From assembly GCA_014905635.1 (NCBI GenBank), contig JABVCE010000010.1:558001-622000 (forward strand): DNA of 64,000 bases. The letters run 5' to 3'. A program made the position numbers and the translations under genes. The notes under the pieces were generated by a model that was given only the letters and a program-made list of their open reading frames with translations, had not been told where the DNA came from and made no database searches. Origin of the DNA: Scenedesmus sp. PABB004 (Eukaryota). Positions 13,406 through 33,298 of this stretch are shown here, piece after piece. Positions within the stretch are counted from its first letter, which is position 1, and each line of letters opens with the position of its first letter.

Positions 13406-13513
13406 GCGCGCGGCGGCCGGAACTGAGGGCGCGGGGGCGGGGCGCGGCAGCTGCCGGAGAGGCGGCGGTCGATCGCACGTTGAGGGGGCGCCGGGGCTAG
13501 CAGTCACCCGGAG

Positions 13514-13518
13514 TGTAA
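13514..13518 (+). promoter_or_regulatory. Putative TGTAA polyadenylation signal of POP1
   Basis: TGTAA about 110 nt after the POP1 stop; TGTAA is the established chlorophyte poly(A) signal. Confidence 0.65.
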
Positions 13519-14040
13519 GAGGCCTCCCCTCGCCGAGTGCCTCGCCGCAGCAGTCAGGGCGCACGTGGCCCGCCGACAGACTCCCGGCCCATGCCAGAGA
13601 GGCGCCGCGCCGCGGAGGCAGGCGCCGCGCCGGCGTGCCTGCAGGCCGCCCGCAAGTTGTTGCCCTGGCGCGACCGTGCCGCGCGTGGCGGCCGCAGCGT
13701 GCCCGGGGCACTCGCTCGTCGGGCTCGCGGCGCTCGGCCGGCGCTCGGCGGGGCGGCCGCGCCGCAGCCGAGCTCCCGGCGGTTCTGGGCTGTGTGTCCC
13801 GGTGCCTGGTGTGTGCGCGTGGTGCCGCGTCGCGCCCCGATCGGCCTCGTTCGGGGCTTTTGCGAGCGAGAAACGCTGCTTTCCCGCGCTCGGGGCGCCT
13901 GGACAGCCCCGCCGGCCCCCCAGGATGGTCGGGCATTGCCCAGGTCGTCTATGGGTCCAAATTTGGGTCCGTTTGGCGACCTTGATTTGAGCGGCAGTCT
14001 ACATATACAGCATGATAGCCCAATTTGCCAGCATTCTCCC

Positions 14041-14113
14041 TCCTCGTTGGTGTAGGCGGTTAGCATACGCGGCTCTCACCCGCGCGACCCGGGTTCGAGT
14101 CCCGGACGGGGAA
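14041..14113 (+). tRNA. trnE-CTC: tRNA-Glu (anticodon CTC)
   Basis: Cloverleaf: acceptor TCCTCGT/ACGGGGA, anticodon arm CGCGG-CTCTCAC-CCGCG, T arm CCGGG-TTCGAGT-CCCGG. AT-rich upstream (TACATATACA) and TTTT downstream. Confidence 0.96.
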
Positions 14114-14116
14114 GCA

Positions 14117-14120
14117 TTTT
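14117..14120 (+). terminator. RNA polymerase III T-tract terminator (also in the other two copies)
   Basis: TTTT 3 nt after the discriminator base. Confidence 0.7.
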
Positions 14121-29100: not shown

Positions 29101-30453
29101 GGCGTGCCGTCCTTGCCGCTCAACGCCGGGTCGACCCCGCAGTTGGCGGGGGAGTTGGTGCCATTGTACTGCGCAAACCTGGCGAGCGCGGGCAGACGCA
29201 GTGGAGCGGTCAGCGGCGTGCGCGGCGAGCCCGGGCGGCAAGCTGTGCTCCGCCTGCGACCCGCGGCCGCCGGACGCCGTGCTCACCGCGCGTCGCCGCG
29301 AGCGACCTCCCTGTTGAAGCCGCACACCCAGTCGCCGTCGCAGTCCGCGCAGCTCGCGAGTTGGAGCCGCTGCGCCCAGAGGCCCTCGGTGGTCGTGCAC
29401 GCGGCGCTGGCGCCGCCGACCCGTCCGCCCCTCCCGACGCCCGCCTCGCCGCCGCCGGCGCCGCCCGCGGCCGAAGCAGCCAGCTGCGCCGTCAGCGGCT
29501 CACGCCAGTCCTTGCCGCTAGCGCGCTGCTTCAGCGCGGCCGCCACGTCCGCCGGCACCGGTGTGGAGACGGTGATCGTGCCAGCATCCCCGCCGCGCGC
29601 GTTGGCGCCGCTGGGCCCTGCGCTCCCGCCCGCGCCGGCGTTGCCCGCGCGGCAGCCGTAGCCCCTACGCGGCGGGCGCAGCGAGTCAGCTGCGTGCTGC
29701 TGTGCTCTCGGCACTCAGCAGGCCAGTGCCGTGTCCCGAGCCCGCGCAGTGACGCAGGCAGCAGGCTGGCGCCCCCTTCCCTGACTCACCAGTAGTTGAA
29801 GGTGACGGATGCGTTGCGCCAGCCGTGCCACTCCAGCTGATCAGCAGCACGCTCCTTTGCGCTTGACAGCAGGTCCGTGCGCTGCTGCAGCTCACACCAG
29901 TGCCGCTTGCACTGGGCAGCGTCGGGCGGTTGCACTGCGCGCGAGGCAGAGCGCGTCAGCAGCAGAGCGCGCACGCGCTGCCCAGCAAGGCCAGCAGCAG
30001 CCGCGCTGCAGTGCGCCCGCAGCACAGCTCCCCTCACCGTCGCCGCCGTCGCCGCCGCTGCCGCCGACCTGGCCCGCGCCGCCGGCGCCGCCGTCTGCGT
30101 GAAAGCGCACGGCGGCGGCGGTGCCGCTGCGCGGCTGCAGGCCCATGTCGGCGGCAAAGACCTGCACCGCGCCGCCGTTGCCGCCCGGGCGCGCGTCGCA
30201 GCCGGGCGCGCCGTTGCCGCCCGGGCTGGAGTCCTTGCCGCTGCCACTGCCGTCGTCCGTGAAGCCCAGCCGCTGGCCGGGCGCGCCGCTGGGCGCCTGG
30301 CGCGGCGCGGCGCGGCCGTCGAAGCTCAGGCCGGGGAAGCCGCGCGTGCTCAGGCTGCAGGGCGCTGCGCCGAGGCAGCGCAGCTCGCGCGCAAAGAGCT
30401 TGGCGGAGCGGGGCCCGGTGATGCTCACATCCCTGCCAAGCAGGGCGGCAGCA

Positions 30454-30505
<52 letters not shown>

Positions 30506-30857
30506 GGCGGAGCTCGTCTTGCTGCCGCGCCGCCGCGCGTGCTGCTGCGGTGCTGCCCCCGCGCCGCGGCGGCGGTACCAGGTTGGCCAGCGCGCGGGGG
30601 GCTGTGCCGCTGCGGCCGCCGCGCCCACCCGTCGATGGTGATGGTGTCGGCGTGCGCCTCCAGGCTGAGGCAAGCCGGCACCAGGAAGGCGCCCGCGAGG
30701 GCTGCTGCCCGGCTGGGGTCGCTGGTGAGCGTGAGCGACTCGGCCGCCAGGATCGTGAGCGTGTCGGCGCTGACACCAGCAAACTCAAAAGCGGCAAACC
30801 GCTGCACCTGCGGCAGCGCCGCCAGCACGCCGCCGGGCGGCGGGCAAGGGTCTGCGA

Positions 30858-30893
<36 letters not shown>

Positions 30894-32785
30894 AGGTGAG
30901 CAGGGGTGCGGCCCGGGCGCTCAGCGCGACCGCTCTGCTGGACGTGCACGCAGTCGCCAGCCAGCCCCCTGGCTGCTCACCGTCGGGCTGGCCGTCGAAC
31001 GCCTGGCACGCCCCGGCGCGCCCCGCCGTGACCGCCGAGGCAGGCGCGACCGCCGCGCTGCCGCCAGCCGCGCCGCGCCGCTGGCCGCCCACGGGGCCGT
31101 CCACTGTGACCACGCCGCTGATGTGCAGGGCGGGGTCGTCCAGGTGCGGCTGGGTGGCGTTGTTGGCCGTCACGCCGCCCGGCAGCACGCGCAGCTCCAC
31201 CGCAAACTGGTCCCACAGCCGGCCGCGCCCGGCGGGCACGCGGCTGGGGTCGAGGGCATACAGCAGCTTGCCGTCCGCCTGCAGGCGAACGGTGCCAAAC
31301 GAGGGCTGCGGGGCGCGGGCGAGGGCGTCAGCGGCGCCGCCCGCGTTCGTACGTTGCTGCCGGGCGGCGTGGGCGGGCTGCGGCGCACCTGGGTGAAGGT
31401 GCTGGCCTGCACGTTGAGGCCGCCCGCGTTCCTCAGGAGCTTGCGCACGTCAATGGCAGCCGTCTGCTGGCCGCCGAGCGCAAAAACGACGTTGGGCCGC
31501 AGCTCCACCGGCCGAGCGGGCAGCTTGAGCCCTGTCGAGGTGTTGGCGGGCGCAGCGCGGCGCCGCGTCGGGCGGCGGCGCCGCCTCCCGCACGGGCCAG
31601 CGCGCGCAGCCGCAGCAGCAGCGTACGAGGGGCCGGGCGCGCGCTCACCTGTCGTCACGATCTGCAGCGAGCCGGGGACGCGCAGGAGGGTGCCCTCCGC
31701 GTACAGAATCTCCAGCGTGAACTGCAGCGCCCGCGTGAGCAGCGGCACGGGGCGGACGACAAACTGGAGGCTCGCGCCAAACGCCGGCACCGTCTCGTCG
31801 TGGCCCATGCCGGGGACGTCCCGCGGCGCGACGACGGCGACGTACGGCGCGGCCGGGCCGGTCACGCGCGTGCCGGCGATGAGCCACATGTTCTGCCGGA
31901 AGCTCACAAAGCTGCCCTCGCTGGCGTAGGGCCCGAGGTTGACCGGCGCCGCGGCGAGCATCTGCGGCCACGTGACCGGCAGGTCGAGCCGGCCGGTGAT
32001 GATCGGCACTGCGGCGCGGCGCGGCGCGGCGCGCAGTCAGTGAGCGGGCGGCGCCACGCCAAGGGGAGGGGGGCCGCGCTGCGCCGCGCCGCGCCGCGGC
32101 TCACTCGCGTGCGGCCCCGGCGGCTTTATCAGGCGCGACACGCCGCCGGCGACGACGTCGAAGCGGGCGCCCAGCACCGTTATGCTCTCGACCAAGCCGC
32201 ACAGGAAGCTGGCGGGCTCGCCGCGCGCAAAGTCTGTGCACGACAGCACCGGCGCCGCCAGCAGCGCCGCGGCGGGCGTGCCCGGGCAGGCGCGCGCCGC
32301 GAGGGACCATGAGTAGCGGACGCTAAAGCCACCGCCCGTCCACACGCTGTCGCAGGCGCCGAGGCGCGCGGTGACGTTGAGCGGCGCCAGCTGCGCGTCC
32401 AGGCGGGACTGGAAGAGCTGCACGTGCTGCGCCAGGCAGAGGCGCCGCATGACAACGAAACTGATGCCAGCGCTGTAGTCGGCGGGCGCCGCACCCCCGG
32501 CGCAGCCTGCGGCGCGGCGGCGGGCGCGCGCGCGCGCGGACGGGGCGTCGGCGATGGACTTCACCGCGCGCCGCGGGCGGCGGCGGCCGCTGCCGCGCCG
32601 CCGGCGCCAGCCGCCCGCACGCGGGCCTCGGGCCTCGGGCCAGCAGCCGCGGCGCGGCGTCGGCGCTCACCCTGCGCCGCCGTTGCCGCCGCCGCCGCCG
32701 CCAGCAGCACGACCGCCAGCACCGCCGCGGCGCGGGGCCACCGGCACGCCGTCAGCGCCGCCCGGACGCGCCCTCTCCTCGCCAT
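26188..32785 (-). CDS. Large secreted multi-domain protein, putative TcA-like / PtIP-83-like pore-forming toxin (multi-exon)
   Basis: Signal peptide [26 protein letters not shown]; intron 32507-32670 keeps phase. Cadherin/Big-like segment PSFGTVRLQADGKLLY..DQF, Gly-rich GGxGGxG tracts, coiled coil, hydrophobic hairpin, C-terminal LLPVSPFSVWL-VDVP..NADVDLSAAYGLRLRF. TGA at 26188-26190. The gene is well supported; the function is inferred. Confidence 0.7.
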
Positions 32786-33298
32786 GGCCGTGCCTCAGCC
32801 GCGGGCGCCGCTGCGGGCGCCCAGGCGAGCGCCCAGGGCTGGGTGTGCGGCCGCCGGCGCCAGGGTGCTGCTGCTCCTCGGGGAGCCGGGCCGCGCGGGG
32901 TCACGCGGCGCCCATGACCTGAACGTGAGCCGCTGAAGCCGCTCGGCACGCGCGCGCGCGAGGCTGCGGCCGCCAGGCGCGCCACGGCGCCCGGCCTCTG
33001 CGCTGCGGTGACCAGCGGGCGCGCTCGTCCCGCGGTGCGGTGCCACGCGAGCTGATCTCGCGGCTGCGCGTCTGACGTGCCGGGCGGCGCCGCGCGCTGG
33101 CTCGCGCGGTTCAGCAAGAAGAGCGCCGCGCGTTCCCGGTGCGCTCCCCACCGCCGCCGCCCGGCCCCAGGTGCCCCCGCAGGCCGTGGCAGGCGCGCCC
33201 GGCCATTCCTGCAACCCGCGCCGTGCTGCCCCGAGCCAGACCGTCCGCGCCGCGGAGAGGTCCCCGCCGGCGGTGACGCCGGCCGCTGCTCGCAGCGC
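32767..33298 (-). repeat. Upstream region and start of the toxin-like gene (D2), duplicated at 14633-15147
   Basis: Direct sequence match with few substitutions and small indels. Confidence 0.93.

Follow-up and report, generated by a model that had tools for sequence, protein, structure and literature searches.

Introduction

Retrotransposons that target transfer RNA (tRNA) genes include Ty1 and Ty3 of yeast and TRE of Dictyostelium, and the known elements of this kind sit at fixed short distances from the tRNA gene. A rearrangement of another type, the duplication-triplication/inversion-duplication (DUP-TRP/INV-DUP) pattern, is known from the human genetics literature. Inverted triplications and complex template-switch rearrangements are treated in parts of two reports (PMC9199198, PMC3907307). 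For the nuclear tRNA genes (tDNAs) of plants and green algae, passages of Hummel et al. reserve the term tDNA cluster for dense tandem arrays in which five or more genes fall within 5 kb, and passages of PMC13437025 report the duplication of tDNAs together with their flanks as well as heavy tDNA clustering in Chlamydomonas. Here, we describe a 64-kb stretch of DNA from Scenedesmus sp. PABB004 (GenBank assembly GCA_014905635.1, contig JABVCE010000010.1, positions 558,001 to 622,000; hereafter the window), in which a repeat carrying a tRNA-Glu(CTC) gene, designated repeat R, occurs in forward, inverted and forward orientation (copies A, B and C). An initial annotation had interpreted this arrangement as a tRNA-anchored island of the prokaryotic type. 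Our analysis argues against that interpretation and indicates that the locus probably arose by a local, DNA-level segmental duplication with multiple breakpoints and one inverted copy in the neighbourhood of a nuclear tRNA-Glu gene. The copy numbers of R, of a second repeat (D) and of a gene lying between the R copies (X) were counted within this window.

Results

A kilobase repeat carries three identical tRNA-Glu genes

Exactly three tRNA genes were detected in the 64 kb by ARAGORN, all of them tRNA-Glu(CTC), at positions 14041-14113 (+, copy A), 17477-17549 (-, copy B) and 25276-25348 (+, copy C). The Rfam tRNA model recovered the same three genes with 54.4 bits each, and alignment showed their sequences to be identical. 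Neighbouring tRNA genes are separated by 3.4 and 7.7 kb. In self-BLAST, the similarity extended far beyond these genes, defining copy A at 13432-14621 (+, 1190 bp), copy B at 16673-18160 (-, 1488 bp), which is the sole full-length copy, and copy C at 24830-26151 (+, 1322 bp); for copy A, individual alignments placed the start at 13432 or 13458 and the end at 14607. Over 1.0-1.3 kb, identities were 96.3-97.1% between A and B, 95.9-96.6% between A and C, and 98.3-98.9% between B and C. Copies A and C are direct repeats whose starts are 11.2 kb apart and which are separated by 10.2 kb; B lies inverted between the two. The initial annotation had already proposed three copies in +/-/+ order with an identical tRNA-Glu gene and a distance of about 10 kb between A and C. 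ARAGORN, Rfam and self-BLAST bore out each of these points, and its repeat coordinates proved accurate to about 30 nt.

Repeat R is non-coding, and the 73-bp tRNA gene makes up only 5-6% of the repeated unit, with more than 600 bp of R to its left and more than 500 bp to its right. Kilobase matches at 96-99% identity cannot arise by chance. Of the high-scoring segment pairs (HSPs), 14 were retained at a minimum length of 80 bp: four were the R and D pairs, nine reflected a 139-bp tandem repeat within R, and one was an unrelated 87-bp tandem repeat. As all 14 were thereby accounted for, the window contains no other repeat at the level of R and D. The 139-bp period belongs to an internal tandem duplication of about 81% identity located just 3′ of the tRNA gene in each R copy (14141-14388 in A), and this duplication predates the triplication. 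A permissive self-BLAST (+1/-1) returned 423 kilobase-long pseudo-alignments at 57-61% identity, which stemmed from the 78% guanine-plus-cytosine (GC) composition and were discarded. Many listed inverted repeats were likewise rejected, being CAG/CTG runs encoding polyglutamine (poly-Q) in a POP1-like gene and in genes X and W (13001-13075 (+), 16186-16297, 18989-19088 and 22600-22720) and not real repeats.

The 100 nt 5′ of each tRNA-Glu gene had a GC content of 49-50% vs 78% in the background, and a run of four T residues was present within 7 nt of each 3′ end. According to passages of PMC13437025, an AT-rich upstream region together with a T run is the usual appearance of tRNA genes transcribed by RNA polymerase III (Pol III) in plants and algae. 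Judged by sequence, all three tRNA-Glu(CTC) genes are apparently functional. Copy B carries two private substitutions in the upstream region (17552 and 17567). An Rfam E-value search of copy B detected nothing besides the tRNA, and a 58-nt marker comprising the tRNA 3′ end and downstream sequence had no exact match in metagenome contigs.

Staggered ends and new junctions

The ends of R differ among the copies. Copy A lacks the right-hand 286 bp, copy C lacks about 150 bp on the left, and the right extension is common to B and C. Copy A begins 27 nt past the stop codon of the POP1-like gene (13403-13405) and contains a TGTAA motif, of the polyadenylation type, at 13514-13518, 109 nt past that stop, indicating that the left part of R is the 3′ untranslated region (3′UTR) of this gene. 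The ~150 bp missing from C are part of it. Copy A is thus in its native left context. The same 3′UTR stretch is present in copy B in inverted form, with its TGTAA at 18074-18078 (-). This indicates that B was copied from the POP1-adjacent locus at a time when the right extension was still present there, and that a chromosomal segment was copied rather than inserted at a tRNA.

A second repeat marks the other side of copy A. Repeat D, also defined by self-BLAST, comprises D1 at 14630-15147 (+), which adjoins the truncated right end of A, and D2 at 32764-33298 (+), which lies just downstream of the TGTAA motif (33364-33368, -) of an NAD-dependent glycerol-3-phosphate dehydrogenase (GPD) gene. 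The end of D2 explains the right-hand limit, 33298, of the region delimited in the initial annotation. D1 and D2 differ by 10 substitutions in 518 columns and by four indels. At the boundary of A and D1, about 8 nt are unmatched, and the other D copy lies 18 kb away beside GPD; the joining of the right end of A to D1 is thus a new junction. As A-D1 and C...D2 are both in direct orientation, they look like a single duplicated block (R...D) in two versions differing by 6.9 kb. The outer junction of copy B coincides with a run of 29 C residues (18162-18190), the longest of 17 listed homopolymers. Neither terminal repeats, inverted ones included, nor target-site duplications were seen at the junctions by inspection by eye only.

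The copies diverge in a star-like pattern

Across 1000 ungapped columns common to A, B and C, we counted 15 substitutions, of which three were private to A, four to B and eight to C; no substitution was common to two copies. Three indels, of 2, 21 and 9 bp, are likewise confined to copy A, and B and C differ at only one of 275 positions in their right extension. The private changes noted in the initial annotation are thus real, and the recent, closely timed triplication that it proposed is consistent with these data, as star-like divergence of about 1-2% would fit duplications close in time. The changes are unevenly distributed: of the eight in C, seven fall in the leftmost ~180 bp of that copy, and the central ~700 bp around the tRNA contain only four differences. 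Gene conversion between the R copies has possibly occurred later. What has been observed directly comprises the three copies with their ends and divergence, and the POP1-like 3′UTR lying inverted in B.

Genes between the repeat copies

The window has a GC content of 78.4% overall, without any N, and 2-kb windows range from 74 to 83%. For nuclear DNA of a eukaryote, such values are extreme. All six reading frames contain open frames of hundreds of codons, so that the length of an open reading frame (ORF) is useless as evidence for a gene and only codon-position bias and homology are informative. We used a codon-usage model trained on 18 exon segments from Pfam-supported genes. All coding segments that it recognised from 15.2 to 38 kb belong to the minus strand, in the order X, W, Y, V, Z and then GPD.

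Among 139 ORFs of at least 110 aa over 13-34 kb, Pfam matches at E<=0.01 were limited to three ORFs at the edges of the region: POPLD, NAD_Gly3P_dh_C and a low-complexity match of the POP1-like poly-Q to TFIIA. No integrase, recombinase, transposase or reverse transcriptase (RT) domain was found in any of these 139 ORFs at that threshold; specifically, RVT domains were absent from the Pfam scan. None of 12 ORFs inside the region matched the PHROGs database. X, Y, V and Z showed no similarity to each other or to other parts of the window in blastp and tblastn searches. The initial annotation had called the enclosed genes orphan-like, a description that holds in so far as no Pfam domain was found, but has to be modified for X, which has two distant relatives and resembles a retrotransposon protein.

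Gene X (15205-16647, -) is an open frame of 481 codons with poly-Q, of which the codon model supports 15205-16300. Its first in-frame ATG occurs at about codon 185. Codon bias is strong and host-like, and the GC content at third codon positions (GC3) is 0.93. With its conserved part as query, an exhaustive phmmer search of 1.84 billion representatives returned two proteins, at E-values of 7.9e-5 and 2.4e-4. X thus belongs to a very sparse protein family, and its relatives look algal. Another protein search with X gave no match among 8000 scored candidates, and a profile built from X and the two relatives recovered only one protein (P0008), which was itself part of the profile.

In a metagenome scan for X, 313 pattern matches yielded one locus (L001, 156-6354). 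There, an X-like ORF (156-2078) overlaps the start of an ORF of 1611 aa, which matched RVT_1 with 88.8 bits and Exo_endo_phos with 21.2 bits, below the cut-off of 24.5. X and the first ORF of L001 are 31% identical over 156 aa, and poly-Q lies upstream in both. The position of the X-like ORF directly upstream of an endonuclease/RT ORF corresponds to the ORF1-ORF2 layout of a long interspersed nuclear element (LINE), as seen at this one locus only. In these sequence comparisons, gene X resembles ORF1 of a LINE retrotransposon. A tblastn search of the window with the second ORF of L001 returned only two matches, both with E above 6 and thus at chance level. As no remnant of ORF2 was found and the first ATG lies near codon 185, X would be a solitary relic or a domesticated form of a LINE ORF1.

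A structure model of the conserved part of X, built from four sequences, had a low mean predicted local distance difference test score (pLDDT) of 65.8 and contained two units resembling ferredoxin or RNA-recognition motif (RRM) folds. Foldseek comparison with the PDB gave generic tandem pairs of ferredoxin- or RRM-like domains (ACT, Cas6, HuR RRM1-2), with a best E-value of 5.6e-4 and template modelling (TM) scores of at most 0.25. The predicted fold is compatible with a nucleic-acid-binding ORF1 protein, but it is not diagnostic of one.

Gene W (18882-23671, -; 18989-23671 in the codon model) lies between the inverted pair B and C. It comprises several segments rich in Ala, Gly, Pro and Gln, is of low complexity, and has no Pfam or PHROG match. 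The TGTAA motif of copy B is on the same strand, some 800 nt beyond the probable stop codon of W. The W transcript may end in this borrowed POP1-like 3′UTR.

Gene Y (26191-27389, -) was recognised by codon bias and the codon model; it has no Pfam domain, and a word-seeded protein search found no match among 8000 candidates. Gene V (28243-29201, -) consists of codon-model segments, and gene Z (30024-32498, -) has several exons in the codon model; neither matched Pfam or PHROGs. In the ESM Atlas, the nearest cluster to Y had TcA_TcB_BD in 31% of its members (score 0.95), and Z came closest to clusters of viral hypothetical or P22 coat proteins (score 0.95, with low recognition). We rejected both as chance leads, because neither was backed by Pfam (E<=0.1) or PHROGs.

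Flanking genes and host setting

To the left, the last exon region of the POP1-like gene (11501-13405, +, ending at the stop codon given above) is supported by the codon model, which includes the segment 12878-13222 (+), and by a POPLD match at about 11964-12047 (+; residues 673-700 of ORF 9948-13139). This match reached 21.1 bits, below the Pfam cut-off of 26.8, and a PDB sequence search with the region gave only low-complexity matches. To the right, GPD (33420-37734, -) has two minus-strand matches to NAD_Gly3P_dh_C at 34.3-36.7 kb, one passing the cut-off of 25 with 31.5 bits and the other scoring 23.5 bits; a match to NAD_Gly3P_dh_N in a minus-strand ORF fell just short, with 22.3 bits vs a cut-off of 23.1. 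Hence, the two conserved genes that the initial annotation had placed outside the repeats are supported, POP1 weakly so. A tandem duplication with a period of 87 bp and 92% identity is located in a GPD intron (37053-37205).

Further genes in the window, all recognised by Pfam, encode a GH1 glycosidase (41.5-45.1 kb, -), a DEAD-box helicase (48.7-50.4 kb, +), a JmjC protein and a kinesin. Pfam domains (GH1, GPD, DEAD helicase and kinesin) occur as short pieces spread over many stop-to-stop ORFs, indicating split genes and, along with the AT-rich upstream region and T run of the tRNA genes, a eukaryotic nuclear setting. The window is nuclear DNA of a very GC-rich eukaryote, and a prokaryotic host for an island is ruled out by the split conserved domains, the kinesin gene and the POP1-like gene. 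TGTAA motifs (seven found vs 3.5 expected) occur just 3′ of likely stop codons. Repeats within coding sequence encode poly-Q and polyalanine. These motifs and coding repeats, and the algal look of the relatives of X, would suit a green alga. The 17 homopolymers listed all consist of C or G and reach 12 nt or more; A or T never reaches 10 nt in a row. Stretches of 12-19 C or G residues are frequent elsewhere in the window. Codon periodicity on the plus strand was observed at positions 1-9000, and a Pfam scan of plus-strand ORFs of at least 70 aa across 1-13.4 kb gave no match in this 9-kb part.

Discussion

Origin of the repeat

Three features seen here are characteristic of segmental duplication: long flanks beyond the tRNA gene are kept in the copies at 96-99% identity, copy B holds sequence native to the source locus (the inverted POP1-like 3′UTR stretch), and the ends, as judged by eye at the junctions, are staggered in a copy-specific manner and without element termini or target-site duplications. 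We infer the mechanism and the order of events to have been as follows. An ancestral intergenic R of about 1.5 kb would have been located just 3′ of the POP1-like gene, comprising the 3′UTR tail, an ordinary Pol III tRNA-Glu(CTC) gene including upstream and terminator signals, and non-coding flank of about 1 kb. This segment would have been copied twice, giving B in inverted and C in direct orientation, and a 0.5-kb D piece from beside GPD would have been copied next to A. The tRNA gene would have been carried along inside R, resulting in three tRNA-Glu(CTC) genes instead of one. The likeliest mechanism would be template switching during replication or break repair acting at several junctions, as in inverted triplication. 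The LINE ORF1-like fragment X and the low-complexity gene W now lie between the R copies.

Three points weigh against this reconstruction. X (1.5 kb), W (6.7 kb) and the Y-V-Z segment (6.6 kb) are each single-copy in the window, and a simple one-step duplication does not account for the arrangement. Gene conversion, and not a recent origin, could underlie the near-identity of the ~700 bp around the tRNA. Finally, with a LINE ORF1-like gene located between A and B, DNA related to retroelements was involved to some extent. We nevertheless regard segmental duplication as the probable origin of the locus.

Alternative explanations

The tRNA gene might itself have been the trigger, in that fork stalling at a Pol III gene led to fork collapse and template switching, producing a triplication centred on the tRNA. 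Parts of PMC8998199 name tRNA genes among replication barriers, and the +/-/+ order, with a middle copy inverted together with both native flanks, resembles the products of inverted triplication. However, no breakpoint lies at or near a tRNA gene, the nearest being more than 500 bp away, and enrichment at tRNA genes cannot be shown from one locus. Furthermore, clean DUP-TRP/INV-DUP junctions are missing, since X and W are single-copy in the window. As for the flanking duplications expected of that pattern, the extra ends of B and the D pair fit, with X, W and Y-V-Z remaining as single copies. A causal role of the tRNA gene is a minor possibility, which we consider unlikely.

An assembly artefact, in which a single tRNA-Glu locus or two haplotypes were mis-joined into three copies, would be a further explanation. 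Repeats of 1.2-1.5 kb with 96-99% identity, about 78% GC and long homopolymers are hard to assemble, and the 29-C run coincides with a junction. In addition, A with D1 looks like C...D2 minus 6.9 kb, as an alternative haplotype could. Against this, every R copy has private substitutions and unique flanks on both sides, and C is not preceded by a second copy of the POP1-like sequence that lies upstream of A. Unlike the palindromes formed by chimeric reads, the two inverted repeats match imperfectly and lie on either side of 2 kb of unique DNA, and the window contains no N. An artefact is thus distinctly unlikely.

A bolder scenario would combine replication and retroelements. In it, tRNA genes of this GC-rich, alga-like genome would be recurrent fragile sites near which a LINE family lands, with X as its surviving ORF1, and Pol III fork stalling would drive inverted triplications that generate new tRNA copies, provide neighbouring genes with ready-made polyadenylation signals (such as the TGTAA of B downstream of W) and assemble lineage-specific genes. 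If true, this would represent a eukaryotic analogue of a tRNA-associated plasticity zone, operating via replication and retroelements and not via an integrase. We consider this scenario quite improbable.

It is also conceivable that R or a larger unit is a tRNA-carrying mobile element, or that the region is a landing pad for tRNA-targeting retroelements, with the enclosed genes as cargo. This idea draws on the relationship of X to an ORF directly upstream of an endonuclease/RT ORF in L001, and on the convergent orientation of the tRNA genes of A and B, both of which have X on their downstream side. However, no remnant of an RT, endonuclease, integrase or transposase was found in the window, R includes the 3′UTR of a host gene, and neither terminal repeats nor target-site duplications were seen by eye. 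The window holds only three R copies, and their ends differ. X is located 830-1090 bp from the tRNA genes and not at the short fixed distance of known tRNA-targeting elements. A mobile origin is therefore very improbable.

The island postulated in the initial annotation, inserted by site-specific recombination at tRNA-Glu, is barely credible: tRNA copies do bracket genes without known domains, but no recombinase was found, the repeats (1190-1488 bp, one of them inverted) are whole tRNA genes with kilobase flanks and not short attachment (att) repeats derived from the 3′ part of the tRNA, the GC content inside (77.7%) does not stand out from that on the left (80.9%) or right (77.8%), all segments being 73-81%, and the host is eukaryotic, so that every testable defining feature is contradicted.

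Implications

Segmental duplication would make the locus an ordinary case of what is the usual route of nuclear tRNA gene copy-number growth, namely local duplication. The locus can be viewed as a tidy multi-breakpoint rearrangement that trebled tRNA-Glu(CTC) and left a copied 3′UTR behind another gene, with a solitary LINE ORF1-like gene adjoining it as a side note. Deletion and inversion between kilobase repeats are well known, and the R copies could undergo non-allelic homologous recombination. The initial annotation had pointed to this potential, and the geometry alone agrees: an exchange of A with C would remove about 11 kb, and exchanges of A with B or of B with C would invert segments of 2-7 kb. 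The locus would become interesting only if, genome-wide in this lineage, such rearrangements or retroelement pieces clustered at tRNA genes, or if the predicted deletion and inversion isomers distinguished one strain from another.

Comparison with known systems

The likeness to prokaryotic tRNA-anchored islands is superficial, consisting in tRNA copies that bracket genes of no known function. Unlike such islands, the locus has no integrase that we could find and no att site at a tRNA 3′ end; its GC content is even, it belongs to a eukaryote, and its repeats contain the 3′UTR of a neighbouring gene. With tRNA-targeting retrotransposons it shares a retroelement-related ORF, the LINE ORF1-like X, near tRNA genes, but it differs from them in having no RT/endonuclease ORF, no short fixed distance and a single example only.

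With respect to the DUP-TRP/INV-DUP pattern, the segments between the R copies are single-copy in the window, where canonical flanking duplications were not seen, and the setting is a nuclear, alga-like genome and not a human disease locus. In both cases, however, a segment occurs in forward, inverted and forward order (A +, B -, C +), and here the middle copy is inverted with both native flanks, several junctions are novel, and an extra templated piece, D, is present.

The tDNA clusters of plants and green algae, as characterised in passages of Hummel et al., likewise contain identical tRNA copies with long conserved flanks that derive from segmental or tandem duplication. In contrast to those arrays, the locus described here consists of three copies spaced 3.4 and 7.7 kb apart, with one copy inverted and protein-coding genes between them.

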